The notes below the pieces were generated by a model that made no database searches, was not told the origin of the DNA, and saw only the letters and a program-made list of their open reading frames with translations. From Escherichia coli (lineage in GTDB: Bacteria; Pseudomonadota; Gammaproteobacteria; Enterobacterales; Enterobacteriaceae), in NCBI RefSeq assembly GCF_016903815.1, contig NZ_CP069970.1: a stretch of 39,407 bases of DNA. One strand, written 5' to 3'. Of the stretch, positions 1-10,900 are shown piece by piece. A program made the translations under genes and the position numbers. Position 1 is the stretch's first letter. Every line of letters starts with the position of its first letter.

Positions 1-1255
1 ATTCCGTTGATTTTACGGATTCACGAAAAAACTTTCTCAATTCATAATGGAATGAATCGCTGAAAGTATGGCTAAAACCTGATTCTTTTACTTCATCCAG
101 ATAATTTTTATCGACCTCGTAATTGTAACTTCTTTTGATAGAGGTATAGGTATCTGTTAATCGTTCAATCCCTGTTCTGAAGACGCTAATATTTTTATCG
201 TTAAGCGCATCGTAAGCCTCACCAAAGAAATCAAAAGTAATATCATCCAGATCCCTTTTGTTCTCAGGGCGCCCTGTTACAATACAACGACGCAATAACC
301 ACCGCCACAATCCTGAAACAGGCTTGACATTTCTCGATGACAATAAAGTCAGTTCACCAGAACGAACACCAAAGGAGGGCAGAATGATAATTTCCGCATC
401 CTGCCCATCTACCGCCTCTAGCCTTCTCAGTAGGAATAAAAAAGGCCTTATATAAATATCAGTAACAACATCACCTTTACTGATATTAGATTTAACATGA
501 AGCATATCGTCTTTCTCAGAAATTGAGTAAGGCAGTATTTTAATATTACCGAGGTAATTTTGACCTACATGACCCCCCGGGTAACGCAGCCACGCCTGAA
601 TATATGCTTTTTGAATGTAGTCATCCACTATCTGAGATAAAAAAAACTTATTCATTAGTCGATCGCGTTTGCTCTCATCCAGGACATTCAGACTGGAGAC
701 GAAGAACCAGATAGACAGAATAATATTGAAAAGCATCCACACAAAAGCTGTTACGGCAAAAGAAGTATTAAGATATCCGTCACCTATAGATAACGTCATA
801 CCGCCCAGCACGACAAATGCAGCCAGTGAAAGACCACTCAGGCCCGCAAACATATATCCGGAATGAAGTTGATACGCGGACTGAATATGGATCCTTGCTG
901 ATTTCTTTTGAAATAAAACACTTATAAGCCCCACAACCAGCGGAAATACAATACCGATTATAGTCAACTGGCTACCCAGTAAATTAGACATCCAATCTGA
1001 AAGCTTGGTAATGCCCTTAAAATGCTGCACAGCGAAAGGTAGCAATACAGGGCGAAAATATTCGACCACGCCAACAGCCCCGAAGGCTGCGGACCATAGA
1101 ACCAGCATAGCCCGGACGTAATGGGTGGAGCAGGAAACAAGTATTCTCTCCACCGGGTTCCAGCGAAGTTTTTTGTAATCCCGGTTCGACTTCAGGCTCC
1201 GTCGGAGTTCAGCTCTCACCTGCCATGAGACACTTTTCAGAAGTTTTCCAAACAT
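1..1255 (-). CDS. membrane protein, N-terminal part (gene runs off the window start)
   Basis: Hand translation of the minus strand: ATG at 1255-1253 (MFGKLLKSVSWQVRAELRR...), frame open to position 1 (at least 418 codons). Four hydrophobic helices in the first ~190 aa, then a soluble domain. AGGA lies 6 nt upstream of the ATG. Absent from the ORF track because no stop lies inside the window. Confidence 0.45.
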   Translation of the reverse strand, partial: MFGKLLKSVSWQVRAELRRSLKSNRDYKKLRWNPVERILVSCSTHYVRAMLVLWSAAFGAVGVVEYFRPVLLPFAVQHFKGITKLSDWMSNLLGSQLTIIGIVFPLVVGLISVLFQKKSARIHIQSAYQLHSGYMFAGLSGLSLAAFVVLGGMTLSIGDGYLNTSFAVTAFVWMLFNIILSIWFFVSSLNVLDESKRDRLMNKFFLSQIVDDYIQKAYIQAWLRYPGGHVGQNYLGNIKILPYSISEKDDMLHVKSNISKGDVVTDIYIRPFLFLLRRLEAVDGQDAEIIILPSFGVRSGELTLLSSRNVKPVSGLWRWLLRRCIVTGRPENKRDLDDITFDFFGEAYDALNDKNISVFRTGIERLTDTYTSIKRSYNYEVDKNYLDEVKESGFSHTFSDSFHYELRKFFRESVKSTE

Positions 1256-1414
1256 AGATATCCTGCGTATTACATAAGAAATTTTATGAATAATAAGCGG
1301 TAGGAACCTTTTTTTCTCTGGAAAATGTCACCCGATACCCTTCATACAGGCTTTGTCATCCTAAAATCCGGTTTAACCTTTTTTCGGATCTCCGATAAAA
1401 AAGAAAGAAATAGA

Positions 1415-1545
1415 GATATGCATAAACATATGCCTGGCATCTACATATGCTACCGCTATACATATGCCACACATCTGCCTATACTAAACATATGCACACA
1501 CCCGGTGCTTTGAATATTCCGGATATGTTTCACATATCCATATGC
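1415..1545. repeat. array of five ACATATGC-type direct repeats (CATATG cores near 1427, 1444, 1461, 1489, 1539) upstream of vapB
   Basis: Seen directly: the first three copies are spaced 17 bp apart, iteron-like. The array ends ~20 bp before the vapB start. Confidence 0.4.
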
Positions 1546-1561
1546 TCGGGAGAGAAAGAAC

Positions 1562-2366: not shown

Positions 2367-4505
2367 TCAAGCGATACGGGCAACCGAGCTCTGGTTTGCT
2401 GCCGGTGGCAGGGCGATGAGCTTGTCACATTCCATAATCACGTACTCCGGGATGAGATCGAATCTGGACGGATCTAGTTGACAGATGAACTCATTTTCAA
2501 TGTGGTACGTTTCGTTAACGAATTTTCGTATTACCGGATGGTCCTGATCCAGTTCCAGTAAACGGAATACCTGCAGTTTTTCATAGCCGTTACGACAGCG
2601 ACGGTACAGGTTTTTTATTTCATCTGGGCTGCTGACGAGAGCCTGAAGTCGCGGGTAATCAAAACTGTCCACATACTCCCGGATATCCCGCAAGGCCTGC
2701 TGAATTTTCTCAGGAGCCATTTTGGGATAGCCCGAGCCCGCAGCGGCAGGCTCGCGATAATCCAGCGGGGCGACGCGTCGATGGAATAGATTGGATAGAA
2801 GCTGATAAGCATCACCACGTTCGTCAACGATTTCAAAGTAGCGACGAAGATAGATGAGCTTAATGATCTCCTCACAGTCTGCTGACGCGGTGATGGATTT
2901 GCAGATCTGCATGAATGTCATGATATCGCCGTCGTTAACAGGTAATTCTTCTATGACTCCAGCAGACAGGCGCAGGCAGGAGGCGGTCACCTGATTACTG
3001 AACAACCTTCTGACTGACTTCAGCGTGTCAATCACAGGCTCCACGTCATGCGTCAGCATAAGTACAGTCCGGTTCTTCAGGCATTCACCACTTGCACGTC
3101 TGAACAGCATTTCAAGAATGGCAAACTTCTTGTTTTTATCAAAAGAAGATATGGGATCATCAAGGATAATCAGTCCCGGGTTTTTTGACAGGCATTCATA
3201 CATGAATAACACAATCGCAAAGGCGTTCCGTTCTCCATAGCTGAGATGCTGGCTACCGCCGCTGACGTACCCGTCAAAATCTATGTGTCGTAGCCTGAGT
3301 TTTCTCTGCTCTCCCTCGCCGGCTATATCCACCCTGTATTTATAGCCTGCATAAGTGAGGAAATTATTGATGTTTGTTTTGTGCTGTGCGATCAGCCGGA
3401 TCATGCTGTCCCGGTGCCGGTTAATTTTTCCCTGCAGCGGTCCGGCAAGGTTTATCAGGTCCATAAGGGCCGCGTTCAGTCTGTCGGTGATCCCCTGCAT
3501 GAGTTCGGATTGCAGATCAGGGAAGAACTGCAGGTCAATCAACCTGGCAGTGAGCACCTCCCGAACGTTCTGCTGTTCCTGCAGGCTGAAAACATTCAGG
3601 CCTCTCAGCGCAGTGAGTTTCTCTGTCAGCGTATCGGTCTGGCGTTTCAACGCCACTAGGTACTCGATATGTTCGGCTTCCGGACCGTTCTGAAGCATAG
3701 TAATGGCCAGAAGGCGTTCTCTGGCGCTCTCCGTCAGGTAATTACCGAGGTTTTCCACCAGTCTGATGATAGCGGTCAGGTTTTTAATGGTGGATTTATC
3801 GTATTCCTCTCTGACTTGGCGAATTTGTGCTTCCTTTCCCGTGATATCACCGGTACAGAACGGACAGCAGCCATCCGAAAGGGGCGAAAACTCGAGTCCC
3901 TTTGTCTGCCAGTCAATCCATTCCACGCGGCGTTCACTGCGGATGTAGGGTTGATAGTTCTCAAGACCAGCCGGAATGTGGTGTATTTTATTTCCGCCTG
4001 ACAGACCTCTCATGCCGGTTGAAGAACGTGAAATCCCGGAACTGGTTGATTTGAAAGCATTACTGAGTTCCTGTAGATGGTCTATCAGAGAGTTCAGCTC
4101 AGTGTGATCCGTGAAAACAGCCCGGATCTTTTGCGTCATTTCTTCTATTTCACGCTCTCTTTCCGCATGGGCTTGATTGCGGATAAGAATATTAAAGCTG
4201 TCACTGATGAGCTCGTCCGGTTGGAACGTAAACTGACTGACGTACTCCTCGTTGAAGCACATCACGTCCCCAATCCCGTCAGCACCGATGACAATGGGCC
4301 CGGTGCTATCGGGGTTTTCTCCGCGCAGCCGGAAGGGCATCAGTGCCTGTAGTCCCTGAATGTCGTCCCGCGCCGCACAGCTTATGGCCCGTGACAGCGT
4401 ACTTTTTCCAGTACCATTTGGCGCAAACTTAATGTTCAGTTTATCGGCAGTGAGGGTGATATGTGCTCGTACGATGTTATTGCAGTGGCGTATTTCAATG
4501 TCCAT
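2367..4505 (-). CDS. ABC-type ATPase with coiled-coil zinc hook (AAA_13 family; RloC/PrrC-like candidate)
   Basis: 712 aa. Walker A FAPNGTGKST (aa 27-36), CCPFC zinc-hook-like motif inside a long predicted coiled-coil insert, ABC signature-like LSYGERN, Walker B LIILDDP, H-loop LTHD. C-terminal region has R-x3-E (LRRYFE) followed by His (LFHRR), reminiscent of the PrrC/RloC anticodon-nuclease triad. Confidence 0.6.
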   Translation of the reverse strand: MDIEIRHCNNIVRAHITLTADKLNIKFAPNGTGKSTLSRAISCAARDDIQGLQALMPFRLRGENPDSTGPIVIGADGIGDVMCFNEEYVSQFTFQPDELISDSFNILIRNQAHAEREREIEEMTQKIRAVFTDHTELNSLIDHLQELSNAFKSTSSGISRSSTGMRGLSGGNKIHHIPAGLENYQPYIRSERRVEWIDWQTKGLEFSPLSDGCCPFCTGDITGKEAQIRQVREEYDKSTIKNLTAIIRLVENLGNYLTESARERLLAITMLQNGPEAEHIEYLVALKRQTDTLTEKLTALRGLNVFSLQEQQNVREVLTARLIDLQFFPDLQSELMQGITDRLNAALMDLINLAGPLQGKINRHRDSMIRLIAQHKTNINNFLTYAGYKYRVDIAGEGEQRKLRLRHIDFDGYVSGGSQHLSYGERNAFAIVLFMYECLSKNPGLIILDDPISSFDKNKKFAILEMLFRRASGECLKNRTVLMLTHDVEPVIDTLKSVRRLFSNQVTASCLRLSAGVIEELPVNDGDIMTFMQICKSITASADCEEIIKLIYLRRYFEIVDERGDAYQLLSNLFHRRVAPLDYREPAAAGSGYPKMAPEKIQQALRDIREYVDSFDYPRLQALVSSPDEIKNLYRRCRNGYEKLQVFRLLELDQDHPVIRKFVNETYHIENEFICQLDPSRFDLIPEYVIMECDKLIALPPAANQSSVARIA

Positions 4506-4653
4506 TTATCTGTCCTTTGCCAGTTATTCCGGGGGGATTCATATCCTGCCGCAAAATGTGCCCGCATGCTGTGATGCAGATACATAATACATTTCGTTTA
4601 TACCATTGCTTACACCTCTCCGAGATGTTCATATCAGAAACAAAGATTAGGTC

Positions 4654-4679
4654 GATCCGACTTTTACTTTTTTCGGATC
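4654..4679. promoter_or_regulatory. inverted repeat GATCCGA-N12-TCGGATC in the divergent ATPase/NTase intergenic region
   Basis: Seen directly. Its right arm and T-run (TTTTTTCGGATCTC, ~4668-4681) recur nearly identically at ~1379-1392 upstream of vapB. Confidence 0.3.
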
Positions 4680-4969
4680 TCTGGAGAGGGGAAGAAGGAT
4701 TTGTGCTGATGATGCAATACTAATGATATATTTTGAACTTAATTGCATTATTGCTTATCTGGCATTAATAACTGAAATACTTTGCATAATTATCAATGAA
4801 AGAACGAGGCTCATATTTCCCATGTAAATTATATGCCCTTGCAGAGAGCGAGACGGTAGTGAACTTGCGGCACTAATAATAAACTGTACCGACTCTTCCC
4901 GGGCACTGGAATGTTCAGATGTACGACAGAGCCCCGCGCCTTTTGCAATAAATAATTAAAGGACTGAAC

Positions 4970-5965
4970 ATGGCGACCACAGTAATAGCTGCCTTTAACG
5001 AATTTATGAAAGATACCGTGAATCTCAAAAAGGCAGATACCGATGACGCGCGTGCAAGTCGCGACTGGCTTATCGGTAAGATGAATGATTTTGAGAAGGA
5101 CGATAAATTTCCGGTGAGTTTTCCAGCGATCCATATTGCCTTTGGCTCCTTTGCCAGAAGAACCAAAATCCGTCCGCTTGATGATATCGATCTGATGTTT
5201 GGCTTAACCGGGCAAGGTGCCACCTATACCATCCTGAGTGACCGGATAACTGTAACCTCCTCCGGAGAGGGGTCACGTCTGCACAGTTACCGCCATTCCG
5301 GAGCTGACACCGTCTGCTCCGTCAGAATTCTGAATGCCTTTAAAAACCGCCTGCAGGACATTGCCCAGTACGCCCAGGCTGATATCAGGCGTAACCAGGA
5401 AGCTGTCACGCTGAAACTGGTCAGCAAGGACTGGAATTTTGACATCGTCCCCTGCTTTATTACCAGCGAAGATGCCTTTGGACGGACTTACTACCTGATC
5501 CCCGATGGCAACGGCCACTGGAAGTTTACCGACCCCCGTAAAGACAGGGACAGAGTCACTACTATCAATGTGCAGAATAACGGCAATGTGCTCAATGTCA
5601 TCAGAGCAGTCAAATACTGGCAGCGGCGACCGACGATGCCATCCATGAGTTCCTACCTGCTGGAAACGCTGATTCTGGACTATTACGCTGGCAGGACATC
5701 CTGCTCATCGTTTGTTGACATGGAGCTGGAAGCGCTTTTCCGCCACCTTGGTCAATCCGTGCGGTACTCTGTCAACGATCCCAAAGGCATACAGGGTGAT
5801 ATCAACTCACTTTCAGCCGAGGCACGTAAGGCGATATCGGACAGATGTTATCTCGATGCGCAAAAGGTATCGGAGGCGAGATGGTTTGAAAATAATAAAG
5901 AGTATGAAAAATCCATCAATAAATGGCGCGATGTGTTCGGGCCATTCTTTCCTGTTTACGGGTGA
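4970..5965 (+). CDS. Pol-beta superfamily nucleotidyltransferase, SMODS / cGAS-DncV-like (CD-NTase-like)
   Basis: 331 aa. Active-site pattern G59-S60, then D72-x-D74 (HIAFGSFARRTKIRPLDDIDLMF), third Asp D158 in NFDIVPCF. Good SD (AAAGGA) before the ATG. Confidence 0.65.
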   Translation: MATTVIAAFNEFMKDTVNLKKADTDDARASRDWLIGKMNDFEKDDKFPVSFPAIHIAFGSFARRTKIRPLDDIDLMFGLTGQGATYTILSDRITVTSSGEGSRLHSYRHSGADTVCSVRILNAFKNRLQDIAQYAQADIRRNQEAVTLKLVSKDWNFDIVPCFITSEDAFGRTYYLIPDGNGHWKFTDPRKDRDRVTTINVQNNGNVLNVIRAVKYWQRRPTMPSMSSYLLETLILDYYAGRTSCSSFVDMELEALFRHLGQSVRYSVNDPKGIQGDINSLSAEARKAISDRCYLDAQKVSEARWFENNKEYEKSINKWRDVFGPFFPVYG

Positions 5966-5968
5966 ATC

Positions 5969-6901
5969 ATGAATGCCATTTACACAAACCAGTCGACCAG
6001 AGAAAACATGGATTTACTGTATGCGCAGGCCCGTGTCTACGACAGGGTAAAAAACTGGAACAGACTGAATTTTCTCTTCAGCATCATCGTACCGCTCCTG
6101 CTTTCTTTCGTTACCGTATACAACCGGAGCCGGGAATTTGTCGATTCAGAGTTGTTGTCTTCGCTGTTGGGGTTATATGGACTCCTGGTGCTTACCTTTA
6201 ACATTGTTATCAGTGGACACATCTCGGCTCTGCGCAGGAAGGCAGCCTCAATCCAGGAAATGTACGACTGCCGGGTACTTGGCATCCGGCGTAATGAACT
6301 GAAGGTGGAGGAGATCCCACGGGATGACATCATCCGGGAAGCTGCATATTTTAGAGACAGCCCGGAAAAAGCACGAAAGCGATTTGGCGAAGAGGGGTGG
6401 TACGTCAGTAAGGTGTATGACGCGCCGCAGGCCGTAATGGCGCTCCTTTGCCACGGAAAAAATCTCGGCTGGGACAAATCGCTCAGGGAGGTTCTGCACG
6501 TATTTTATCTTTCCGCTTTTATTGTCTCGCCTGTCGCGATGCTTGTTTACGGCATCGTCATGAAATCCGGGCTGAATGAGATCCTCTTCTATGTGGTGTT
6601 CACACTGCCGGTCATCCGCTATTTCTTGCTTCAGTTTCTGGATAATCGCAGCAGTATGAAAAGAAGCGAGAAGCTGAAAAAGTACGTTGAGAAGGAATTA
6701 TCCGGCATAAGGGTGTCCGGAAGGGCAGAAGAAGAGCAACTGGCTTATACGCTCCGGAATATCCAAGATGAGATGTTTACCTACCGGGCCTCATGTCCGC
6801 CCGTACCCAACGGTATTCAGCTGATAATGAAGCCCAAAAATGAACGAATTTATGTTGATTACTTTGAAACAAATCTGAAGGAGCTGCACCTTCAGAAGTA
6901 A
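5969..6901 (+). CDS. 4-TM membrane protein, putative effector partner of the nucleotidyltransferase
   Basis: 310 aa. ATG is 3 nt after the NTase stop, with an SD inside the NTase 3' end. Hydrophobic helices at ~aa 33-51 and 62-86, two more at ~175-225, a ~90-aa cytoplasmic insert and an ~80-aa C-terminal tail. Confidence 0.55.
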   Translation: MNAIYTNQSTRENMDLLYAQARVYDRVKNWNRLNFLFSIIVPLLLSFVTVYNRSREFVDSELLSSLLGLYGLLVLTFNIVISGHISALRRKAASIQEMYDCRVLGIRRNELKVEEIPRDDIIREAAYFRDSPEKARKRFGEEGWYVSKVYDAPQAVMALLCHGKNLGWDKSLREVLHVFYLSAFIVSPVAMLVYGIVMKSGLNEILFYVVFTLPVIRYFLLQFLDNRSSMKRSEKLKKYVEKELSGIRVSGRAEEEQLAYTLRNIQDEMFTYRASCPPVPNGIQLIMKPKNERIYVDYFETNLKELHLQK

Positions 6902-7948: not shown

Positions 7949-10900
7949 CTATATTTTTCCGCCTACGCCTTTAAACTTCTCAATAAACGAGACGATTTTC
8001 TGGAAAACTGCCTGTTTTTTCGTTTTATATTGCGGATTCAACGGACTAAGTTTTGGTAATGTCTCGTTTAATTCTGTGCCATTTTCGGTGGCGTATTCGC
8101 GTTTTAAAGACGTGCGAATATAGCGTTTTGCTGCATCTTCATTGAGATTTTCTTCTTTAATCAATGCTTCTGCTTCACGTAGCTGTTCGCGTTGAGCAAA
8201 CGTAAAGAATGCCTCAATGATACTGGCTTTGTCTGGTAAATCATCCAGGTTCGTTTGCTGAATAAAATCGACCACCAGGCCCTCTTTCGCCCGGTTCCCC
8301 AGGCTTGAACGAATTAAGCGTTTGACCTCTTCGATCATTTCGCCCTTGCCTTTATTTTGTCTGTTATGTTCGAAAATCAGTCCAAGGATATAATCCAGGT
8401 TTATTTCCTGAGACTTCAGCAAATCGACCTCAAAAACCACGTCATCCCAGTCAGTGGTTGATTTCTCTTTTTTATCAGCTTCTTTCTCGCGGCGCTGCCA
8501 GTCGCGAATATCGTTATAGGCAGAACGATAATCCTGAATCTTGCGATCAGCAGGGAGACGAATCGTTTGCAATTCAGCGAACTTTTCATCATCCACATAA
8601 TGTTCTGCTTTGAATTTTTCTACCTGCAACAGGATCGCTAAGATCGATTTGTTGCAGGGCTTTCAGCGTGGCAAATTCATCATAGTTTTGCAGGATGTTC
8701 TCGGTACGCAGGTATTCACCAAACAGTTTAACGAAGTCTTTCTTCTCTTTTTCACTTTCAATACTGGCAGGGTCAGGGAACCGTTGTTCCAGTTCTGCAA
8801 CTACTGCCATAAAGCCGCGCTTAGCTTCACCAGTAGCAGCATCAGTAAAGCCTTCCATATACTCTGCATAACTCTTTTCTAAAACTACATTTTTGGTGTT
8901 TTTGTCACCAAACAGCGTTATGGCATCAATAGTTGAGCGTTCCAGATCCCGGAAAGTGACGATATTACCGAAGGTTTTAGTGGCATCATAAATACGGTTG
9001 GTGCGGGAAAATGCCTGCATCAGGCCGTGAAAACGAAGGTTTTTATCGACGAATAGCGTGTTCAATGTTGGAGCATCGAAGCCAGTTAAGAACATCCCCA
9101 CGACAATTAGCAGATCGATATCCTGATTTTTAACCCGCTGGGCTAAATCACGATAGTAGTTCTGAAAACCGTTACTGTCGGTGCTGAAGTTAGTTTTAAA
9201 ATAGCTGTTATACTCACGAATTGCAGCGTCCAGAAACTCTTTAGCACTGCTGTCCATTGCGCTGGTATCAAAAGTTTCATCGGAAATCTCACCAATGGCA
9301 TTTTGTTCTTCATTAGCGGCAAAGGAGAAGATTGTCGCAATACGCAGCGGTTTATAGGTAGCCGATTTATTAGCGGCTTCCTCTTGTAACCGTTTAAACG
9401 TCGCATAATAGGCTTTCGCAGCATCCACGCTGCTCACTGCCAACATAGCATTAAAGCCTTTTGAGCCTGGGAAGGTACGGTGAGTTTTCTGGCGGAAGTT
9501 ATTCAGAATATATTGCGTAATTTCCTGTATACGCATGGGATGAAGAAACGCCTGCTGATTTTCAGCCGCACTCAGTTTTTTCTCGTCAGTTTCTGTCTCT
9601 AAAGACTTAAACTGTGGCCGCACATCGTTGTAGTCCACCTTGAATTTAAGCACTTTTTCATCACGAATCGCATCGGTAATTACATACGAATGCAATTCAC
9701 GACCAAATACGCTGGCGGTCGTTTCTGAGCCTAAGGCGTTTTCCGGGAAAATAGGGGTACCGGTAAAACCAAACTGATAATAGCGTTTGAATTTCTTCTT
9801 CAGGTTTTTCTGTGCTTCTCCAAACTGGCTGCGGTGGCATTCATCAAATATAAACACCACTTGCTGATTATATACAGACAGGTCGCTTTCTGCTTTCATC
9901 AGGTTATTGAGTTTCTGAATAGTAGTGACGATAATTTTGTTATCGTCCTTATCCAGATTTCGTTTAAGACCTGCGGTATTTTCCGATCCATTGACACTGT
10001 CTGGCGAAAAACGCTGATATTCCTTCATGGTCTGGTAATCGAGGTCTTTCCTGTCGACCACGAAGAAGACTTTATCAATAAAGTCCAGTTCTGTTGCCAG
10101 ACGCGCGGCTTTAAAGCTGGTCAGGGTTTTACCAGAACCGGTAGTGTGCCAGATAAAGCCACCACTTTCGGGGTTAGACCAGTTTTTCGCTTTATAGGAG
10201 CTGTTGATTTTCCATAAGATACGTTCAGTGGCGGCAATCTGGTACGGTCGCATCACCAGTAGCGTCTGGACTACTGTCAAAAACGCTGTAGTTCACCAGA
10301 ACATTCAGCAGAGTATGTTTCTGGAAAAAGGTAGCGGTAAAGTCTTTGAGGTCTTTAATCAGCGTGTTGTCTGATTTCGCCCAATTCATGGTGAAGTCAA
10401 AACTGTTTTTATCGCGCTTTGTCGTGTTGGCAAAATAACGGGTATCGGTGCCGTTAGAAATGACAAACAGTTGCAGATACTTAAACAGGGAATTTTCGCT
10501 GTTAAAACTCTCTTTACTGTAACGATGTATCTGGTTGAAAGCCTCACGAATCGCCACCCCGCGTTTTTTTAGTTCGATTTGCACCAGCGGTAAACCATTA
10601 ACCAGGATCGTGACGTCATAACGGTTAGCATGAGAACCCGTCTGTTCAAACTGCTGGATAATCTGCACCTTATTGCGCATGAGATTCTTTTTATCTATCA
10701 AATAGATGTTCTCAAGTCGCCCGTCGTCAAAAATAAAGTCGCAGATATAGTCGATATGGATTTTACGGGTTTTATCCAGAATACCATCGCTGGGGTTGTC
10801 CAGATACTGCTCCGTGAAGCGCCGCCACTCGCTGTCATTAAACATCACACCATTGAGGCTCTGAAGCTGTTCCCGAACATTAGACAGCATTGCCGACTGT

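Follow-up and report, generated by a model that had tools for sequence, protein, structure and literature searches.

The left end of a 39,407-nucleotide stretch of the Escherichia coli contig NZ_CP069970.1 (this whole stretch is hereafter the window) raises the question of what is encoded by a long minus-strand frame that runs off its edge beside several defence genes, and whether it belongs with them. An original prediction from the sequence had suggested that this frame, missing from the list of open reading frames (ORFs), encodes a membrane protein that could be a further defence or abortive-infection component. Here we recover the complete gene and present evidence that its 1,039-residue product typifies an apparently undescribed family, in which four transmembrane (TM) segments are joined to a large soluble part with a C-terminal domain predicted to have the HK97 fold of phage capsids. 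We also argue that the gene is probably a defence or anti-mobile-element gene acting as a stand-alone unit, and propose, far more tentatively, that it might sense the capsid proteins of infecting phages.

Translation of the minus strand of window positions 1-1255 gave 418 stop-free codons, in agreement with the minimum length predicted originally; the frame had been left out of the ORF list because the tool used skips frames running off the end of the source. The ribosome-binding site that had been considered plausible is also present, 5 nucleotides before the initiation codon (Table 1). The leftward extension called for at the time could be made with plasmids identical to the window in this region: in NZ_CP023845.1, which is 100% identical over window positions 1-1500, the full gene codes for a protein of 1,039 amino acids deposited as "hypothetical protein" (WP_001553851.1). 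The window holds only codons 1-418; the other 621, including those for the HK97-fold domain, lie to its left and were read from the identical plasmids. The first methionine and an N-terminal motif are conserved across 48 homologues, and comparison with copies 91-94% identical at the DNA level gave a ratio of nonsynonymous to synonymous substitution rates (dN/dS) of about 0.2 in all four regions of the gene. The extension of the frame in identical plasmids, this conservation and the low dN/dS together establish that the frame is a real gene under constraint. In PLSDB a minority of the plasmid copies are truncated, carry an IS2 insertion or are broken up by frameshifts, and the intactness of the copy in the window's own replicon is read from codons 1-418 only.

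Searches with the 1,039-residue protein yielded no match in Pfam, NCBIfam, PADLOC or PHROGs. In the case of PADLOC-DB 2.0.0, a library of 5,027 defence models, zero families were recovered at E-values up to 1, and the same library strongly matches the products of neighbouring genes (PDC-S06, the CBASS cyclase and 4TM). Eight distant members did not match any family either, and sequence and profile searches of the PDB were equally negative. A word-indexed search recovered 107 homologues, essentially all of about 1,040 residues and none with a Pfam domain or a meaningful name, and an exhaustive profile search recovered 796 clusters at 50% identity (346 with E <=1e-30), nearly all about 1,030-1,180 residues long and collinear with the query. 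The named members come from Gammaproteobacteria, namely Enterobacterales, Vibrio, Shewanella, Pseudoalteromonas, Alteromonas, Kangiella, Aliikangiella and Bermanella, and the most distant ones are metagenomic. Judged by these searches, the proteins form a large family of fixed architecture that appears to be previously undescribed. The names "MFS" or "chromate transporter" borne by a few homologues look like annotation carry-over: only four TM segments are present, as against the 12 of the major facilitator superfamily (MFS), and neither the query nor the eight distant members match MFS_1 or Chromate_transp. The original prediction had singled out a housekeeping transporter or a plasmid conjugation or maintenance protein as the identities that would speak against it, and no match to either was found in Pfam, NCBIfam, PADLOC or PHROGs. 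We also rejected a prophage structural gene: tblastn against 50,697 deposited phage genomes recovered no homologue, and in predicted prophages (eleven predicted prophage or viral IMG/VR contigs carry a family member) the gene occupies accessory positions.

While the profile searches suggested in the original prediction linked the protein to no sequence family, the structure predictions suggested alongside them point to an HK97 fold in its C-terminal domain. We modelled the full-length protein with AlphaFold2 on a 48-sequence alignment (predicted local distance difference test (pLDDT) 85.5; predicted template-modelling score (pTM) 0.71). A Foldseek comparison of this model with the PDB returned a top 50 composed almost only of HK97-fold capsid proteins and encapsulins, with marginal scores (E 2e-4 to 2e-2; target-normalised TM-score 0.22-0.46). 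In order to localise the capsid match, residues 700-1039 were then modelled alone on a different, 50-sequence alignment (pLDDT 92.5; pTM 0.83). The structures matched by the C-terminal domain are those of phage capsids, encapsulins, the RcGTA capsid, a cf-PICI capsid, SaPIbov5 Ccm and herpesvirus capsids, at sequence identities of 4-13%; in the sole non-capsid match, 100 residues of helix are aligned. The model contains the core of the fold in canonical order: an A (axial) domain with a beta-sheet and flanking helices, and a P (peripheral) domain with a long spine helix and long beta-strands. Because two predictions from different alignments and two comparison methods agree, we consider it very probable that the modelled domain has the HK97 fold. 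One might object that the likeness is an artefact of modelling, or a chance alpha/beta similarity in a membrane protein of some other fold, given that both structures are predictions and that the identities and Foldseek scores are low. However, independent predictions from different alignments, with pLDDT values of 85-92, led to the same result by both comparison methods, and the lone outlier aligns over just 100 residues, making this objection highly improbable. No conserved portal, terminase, protease, scaffold or cargo genes occur beside the gene in 20 loci, where its neighbours are instead restriction-modification (R-M), defence and mobility genes, and the tether of four TM segments makes a closed icosahedral shell unlikely.

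The second salient feature is the membrane domain. Hydropathy and AlphaFold2 agree with the predicted succession of four TM helices at the N-terminus and then a soluble domain: Kyte-Doolittle analysis detects hydrophobic segments at residues ~46-66, 90-118, 132-158 and 162-193, and the model places the TM helices at residues 46-66, 82-114, 134-155 and 160-192. Since the first 45 residues carry 11 Lys/Arg, the positive-inside rule would place the N-terminus in the cytoplasm, along with the large C-terminal part. Three to five TM segments, mostly four, are predicted in 203 of the 204 full-length members, and all members, including the most distant ones, retain the TM domain together with a TM2 motif of the form Q-x-T...(I/V)-Y-P-(L/I)-V. 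Conservation peaks at residues 91-150, comprising TM2, a cytoplasmic loop and TM3. Q96, P105, W173, N177 and F184 are invariant in a 26-sequence alignment of the domain, with Y128 and S140 nearly so, and among 119 sequences of <60% mutual identity P105 and N177 are present in 100% and Q96, W173 and F184 in 95-97%. The TM domain has a mean pairwise identity of 0.28, against 0.22 in the helical domain and 0.19 in each of the stalk/beta and C-terminal regions; it is by these alignments the best-conserved part of the family, and the invariant polar residues within the membrane (Q96 and N177) argue for a functional domain rather than a passive anchor. Alleles of the gene are mosaic, with a synonymous divergence of 0.067 in codons 1-195 as against 0.27-0.36 elsewhere (L001:10139-13255 versus L014:7001-10117), which points to recombination within the gene at a breakpoint separating the TM domain from the soluble part.

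The constraint on the TM domain bears on one way in which a tethered capsid mimic might act without killing the cell: it would co-assemble with phage capsid proteins and sequester or poison procapsid assembly at the membrane, the cell surviving and the TM segments serving mainly as an anchor. Analogies exist among satellite proteins, such as Ccm and PLE TcaP, which reportedly remodels ICP1 capsids, and in Tai, which is said to defend by interfering with tail assembly. However, a mere anchor is not expected to be the most conserved part of the protein or to hold invariant polar intramembrane residues, and the stoichiometric poisoning of so abundant a protein as that of the capsid would need high expression. 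We accordingly regard such non-abortive interference as improbable.

To what processes the family is linked can be gauged from its gene contexts, which we surveyed qualitatively, with no genome-wide enrichment statistic, at about 30 loci. Embedding of the gene in a type I R-M operon, in the order hsdM-hsdS-[gene]-hsdR with overlapping or abutting frames and Pfam-confirmed R-M components, is seen in Aliikangiella marina and in an IMG/VR contig flanked by an integrase; the same layout in Kangiella aquimarina is assigned only by similarity of the flanking ORFs to hsdM and hsdR of the window plasmid. The A. marina island (L030:4004-17564) encodes, all on one strand, a PRTase-CE/winged helix-turn-helix protein with a reverse transcriptase, HsdM, HsdS, the family member, HsdR and a NucS-like protein. 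A DISARM-like cluster (L018:1-15670) combines a DEAD/ResIII/MZB helicase, SNF2, a 198-residue protein, an MmeI/Eco57I-type methyltransferase, the family member, an unannotated protein of 548 residues and PLD; here the stop of the methyltransferase gene at 8000 is followed by the start of our gene at 8001. On a Salmonella integrative and conjugative element (ICE) the gene is cargo among the transfer genes, immediately behind McrBC; in another locus it directly follows a type III-like R-M cluster of methyltransferase, Schlafen-AlbA_2 ATPase and ResIII genes, and in a conjugative element it is next to the gene of a Schlafen-type ATPase. In Pantoea it is found beside an AAA_15/AAA_21 ATPase gene, on an island that also carries integrase and D5-type primase genes, and in Vibrio mytili with SIR2_2 and PIN genes beside a resolvase. 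A lambdoid prophage of Edwardsiella carries it just downstream of, and co-directional with, the gene of a cI-like repressor (Peptidase_S24 and helix-turn-helix (HTH) domains), with an nSTAND1-like NTPase on the opposite side, and a P2-like prophage right after tail gene D. Near the gene in the window itself lie vapBC, PDC-S06 and the genes of type I CBASS and of a type I R-M system.

Across unrelated genomes the gene repeatedly lies close to known defence genes, and by this strong guilt by association it is probably a defence or anti-mobile-element gene. The defence part of the original prediction is strengthened in this way by the R-M, DISARM-like, McrBC and other contexts. A joint role with its neighbours in the window (vapBC, the zinc-hook ATPase, and the operon of a nucleotidyltransferase and a 4-TM protein) is not: in the co-occurrence check that had been proposed, the clustered flanking ORFs of 20 diverse loci shared no family besides the gene itself, and no neighbour was conserved across them. 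A two-gene system with the DUF3800 gene directly downstream in the E. coli plasmids was ruled out too, as the latter is absent beside copies 91-94% identical at the DNA level and beside every distant homologue. For these reasons the gene is a stand-alone single-gene unit and not an operon component. A different view of the same contexts would be that the protein is a non-defence accessory of mobile elements, with a role in plasmid or ICE competition, exclusion, the membrane or stress, that merely travels with defence genes. The gene is always found on or beside mobile elements, many of its flanking genes serve transfer, integration or housekeeping, it is present in only ~4% of complete E. coli genomes (223/5,426), and a defence role is deduced from genomic context. 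Yet unrelated cargo is hard to reconcile with its embedding between hsdS and hsdR in three lineages and in a DISARM-like cluster. PrrC and other abortive-infection genes are, as is generally known, classically housed in type I R-M operons, and the prophage position downstream of cI mirrors that of rexAB in lambda; we therefore think a non-defence role quite improbable.

How such a protein might defend a cell is suggested by the distribution of conservation along it. Defences consisting of one protein commonly couple a conserved effector to a sensor that varies, and type I CBASS is reportedly escaped by mutations in virion assembly proteins. In this family the TM domain is conserved and the capsid-like and beta domains are variable, HK97-fold proteins self-associate, and phage capsid proteins are established triggers, activating CapRelSJ46, Lit and PifA (PMC9712102). 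We propose on these grounds that late in infection the major capsid proteins of a phage, or capsomer or procapsid intermediates, would bind the cytoplasmic capsid-like domain on a 'like binds like' principle, through the association surfaces of the HK97 fold. Binding would cluster or rearrange the protein and pass a signal through the solenoid and stalk, whereupon the TM domain would open or assemble into a pore, collapsing the membrane potential and aborting the infection before progeny are finished. We infer that the function would be defence, the ligand a capsid protein and the TM domain a membrane-disrupting effector. This whole chain, from the sensing of capsid protein by the capsid-like domain through the pore formed by the TM domain to abortive infection, is tentative, a possible account rather than a probable one. 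Rather doubtful is the more specific notion of a new exaptation of the HK97 fold, whereby a membrane-tethered capsid mimic recognises the capsids of tailed phages and clustering of its four TM segments produces a lethal pore.

Several results weigh against this proposal. A PHROGs scan of 50 C-terminal domains found no major-head family, and Pfam and PDB profile searches found no capsid, so that for want of sequence similarity to capsid families a descent from a capsid gene is not shown. As judged from the secondary structure of the models, only helices and no beta-hairpin occur N-terminal to the pair of helices spanning residues 771-827; the E-loop or N-arm may be missing as a consequence, weakening a model of co-assembly. 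A word-index search for the TM domain and the C-terminal domain in other architectures, itself a weak negative, found only fragments of the same family, and the modularity of sensor and effector is thus not demonstrated. With dN/dS uniform at ~0.2, diversifying selection on the capsid-like domain is not apparent at this resolution, and at some loci the flanks are ordinary housekeeping, mobile-element or island-border genes. Literature searches returned no report of phage protection by any member of the family, and WP_001553851.1 was found neither in a literature text search nor in the text and supplements of DefensePredictor. Finally, of the conserved polar groupings outside the membrane the strongest belongs to the solenoid, so that sensing or catalysis could in truth be the task of this domain. 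The grouping comprises W490, E491, W493, H514, D539, W544, N600, D604, R663, R698 and Y700, which are present in 92-99% of the 119 sequences; from its conservation this polar and aromatic set at residues 490-700 resembles an active site or a pocket for binding, and no fold or family match accounts for it.

The position of these residues is at the heart of another explanation, in which the gene is still a defence gene and the HK97-fold domain serves as an oligomerisation scaffold, gathering the protein beneath the membrane into patches or into rings that resemble pentamers or hexamers, and so building a multi-subunit channel. Infection would then be sensed elsewhere, most likely by the binding of a phage protein, a peptide or a small molecule in the solenoid pocket. 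That the strongest conserved soluble residues belong to the helical and not to the capsid-like domain fits this explanation, as does the pTM of the full-length model, which suggests a fixed arrangement of the domains. A structural scaffold would, however, be expected to be conserved, and few regions are as poorly conserved as the capsid-like domain; we judge the scaffold unlikely, though the likeliest of the rival explanations.

Irrespective of mechanism, the combination of four TM segments, a stalk and beta domain, an alpha-solenoid of ~400 residues and an HK97-fold domain appears from the models to be categorically new. The solved structures matched by the C-terminal domain (the 100-residue helix outlier aside) are shell-forming, and we found no report of the HK97 fold in an integral membrane protein of a defence hotspot. 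All tailed phages share the HK97 capsid fold, so a sensor built from it could in principle recognise very different phages. If true, the capsid-sensing proposal would bear on how single-gene abortive systems reach broad recognition, and would amount to an immune sensor that mimics the structure of the tailed phages' most conserved protein fold and is carried on epidemic IncF resistance plasmids. The scale is considerable, with ~800 clusters at 50% identity and no named member meaningfully annotated; and the copy studied here is carried on IncF plasmids, present in ~4% of complete E. coli genomes, many of them from human clinical samples, and also in Klebsiella, Salmonella and Enterobacter. It could influence the outcome of phage therapy.

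Table 1. Features of the gene and its product, with positions in the window where they fall within it.
Feature	Window position	Residues	Strand	Basis or remark
Ribosome-binding site AGGA	1264-1261		minus	5-nt spacer to ATG
Start codon ATG	1255-1253		minus	read from sequence
First 418 of 1,039 codons	1..1255		minus	full gene = WP_001553851.1 in identical plasmids
Divergent intergenic region, gene to vapB	1256..1561		.	306 bp; vapB starts at 1562, plus strand
Basic N-terminal segment	1121..1255	1-45	minus	11 Lys/Arg, 3 Asp/Glu; predicted short helices
N-terminal helices		1-44		AlphaFold2
Four-helix TM domain	680..1120	46-192	minus	hydropathy, AlphaFold2, conservation
Stalk helix continuous with TM4, and small beta domain	251..676	194-224 and ~238-330	minus	AlphaFold2; identity 0.19
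Start of all-alpha solenoid/toroid-like domain	1..250	336-418 of ~336-760	minus	AlphaFold2
Alpha/beta C-terminal domain (~270 residues)		~770-1039		opens with two long helices, 771-802 and 807-827

The stalk/beta region of Table 1 is one of the two most variable parts of the protein. The intergenic region presumably holds the promoters of both the gene and vapB; a promoter consensus scan detected one promoter-like site, on the plus strand at 1457-1485, and no minus-strand site. Five direct repeats centred on CATATG, spaced at 17/17/11/50 nucleotides, occupy positions 1402-1547 along with short inverted repeats. This array looks like an operator for VapB autoregulation, which may also affect the divergent gene.

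At least 80% of window positions 1-1500 is present in the 223 E. coli genomes mentioned above, nearly always on plasmids, and the same sequence occurs on plasmids of Klebsiella, Salmonella, Enterobacter and Shigella. The full-length gene is found in 232 PLSDB plasmids, and some copies there have an IS2 insertion (1.3 kb) or are annotated as three or four ORFs; such copies indicate that the gene is accessory to the plasmid and not essential, being dispensable for it and possibly costly. A plasmid maintenance or conjugation protein was rejected in view of this breakage, of the limited spread over plasmids and genomes, of the absence of a Pfam or NCBIfam match and of the occurrence in chromosomal R-M operons. 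The surroundings of the gene in NZ_CP023845.1 are those of an IncF RepFIA region: on the side of the window there follow vapBC, the gene for a 712-residue ATPase, a SMODS cyclase with an S-4TM effector, IS1 and type I R-M genes, and on the other side the DUF3800 gene, a gene for a 94-residue HTH-like protein, ccdAB, a resolvase-type integrase gene, repE and sopAB. Within window positions 2367-6901 the ATPase matches the PADLOC candidate system PDC-S06 (E 3e-286) and the cyclase and 4TM pair match models of type I CBASS (E 4e-152 and 1e-165), marking the left end of the window as a defence island. The DUF3800 protein (377 residues) and the HTH-like protein, which matches phrog_8351 (E 4e-13), are encoded directly downstream of the gene on the minus strand, left of the window (L001:8436-9873). 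The pair is found only in the E. coli IncF version of the locus and is missing beside the 91-94% identical Enterobacter and Klebsiella copies. DUF3800 is said to be mentioned together with retrons and rare CRISPR-Cas variants, and the two genes could be a separate defence candidate.

A side observation concerns Vibrio mytili, where two modules, one of a 455-residue protein, PIN_12 and HTH and the other of the family member, HTH, a 139-residue protein and SIR2_2, appear in swapped order in two assemblies beside a serine resolvase; this suggests recombinase-driven shuffling of defence cassettes.

Keyword searches of the literature found no defence protein with a capsid-fold domain, and the family is best set against the systems with which it shares individual traits. 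The core fold appears, on the evidence of the models, to be common to the HK97 capsids and encapsulins (e.g. T4 gp24, lambda gpE and HK97 gp5), but the domain described here has no sequence-profile match to them, forms the C-terminal quarter of a 1,039-residue integral membrane protein, displays no evident E-loop or N-arm and has no head-morphogenesis or cargo genes alongside. Encapsulins have been listed as cellular recruits of the HK97 fold in a 2022 review of mobile-element gene exaptations (PMC8987985). SaPIbov5 Ccm (PDB: 7rwz) is likewise an HK97-fold protein encoded by a mobile element; it is, however, a soluble, full capsid homologue that is built into small satellite capsids and redirects helper-phage assembly, whereas the protein here is membrane-anchored, larger and lacks packaging genes.

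Among defence proteins, SNIPE is a nuclease bound to the membrane and unrelated (10.1101/2025.11.03.685801). The S-4TM effector of the CBASS system 5 kb away (window 5969-6901) also has four TM helices and is presumed to disrupt membranes, but kinship was rejected upon profile comparison, the hhalign probability of the family alignment against it being 0.9%. PrrC, from what is generally known of its arrangement, is similarly a stand-alone gene between hsd genes; it is a soluble ABC-ATPase and anticodon nuclease with no homology to the present protein in Pfam or PADLOC. CapRelSJ46 and Lit would belong to the same class with respect to the proposed trigger, the major capsid protein, but they sense with an antitoxin-like pseudo-ZFD and with a protease, respectively, rather than with capsid mimics, and their effectors hit tRNA or EF-Tu and not the membrane.

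PifA of the F plasmid, which excludes T7, is in like manner an IncF-borne single protein encoded near RepFIA. It is membrane-associated, and infection leads to membrane leakage; to our knowledge it is not known to contain a capsid-like fold. It differs in its domain architecture, and no PADLOC model, including any for PifA in that library, matches the protein studied here at E-values up to 1. Escape mutants of T7 from PifA map to the major capsid protein (PMC9712102). A further parallel lies in the Edwardsiella prophage, where the family member takes the place downstream of a cI-like repressor that rexAB has in lambda. In RexAB, RexB, an effector with four TM segments, is coupled to the cytoplasmic sensor RexA, and the membrane potential is lost. 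RexAB is made up of two polypeptides, whereas the protein here is a single chain with no defence-model match and with a soluble portion of ~850 residues that comprises the solenoid and the predicted HK97-fold domain.

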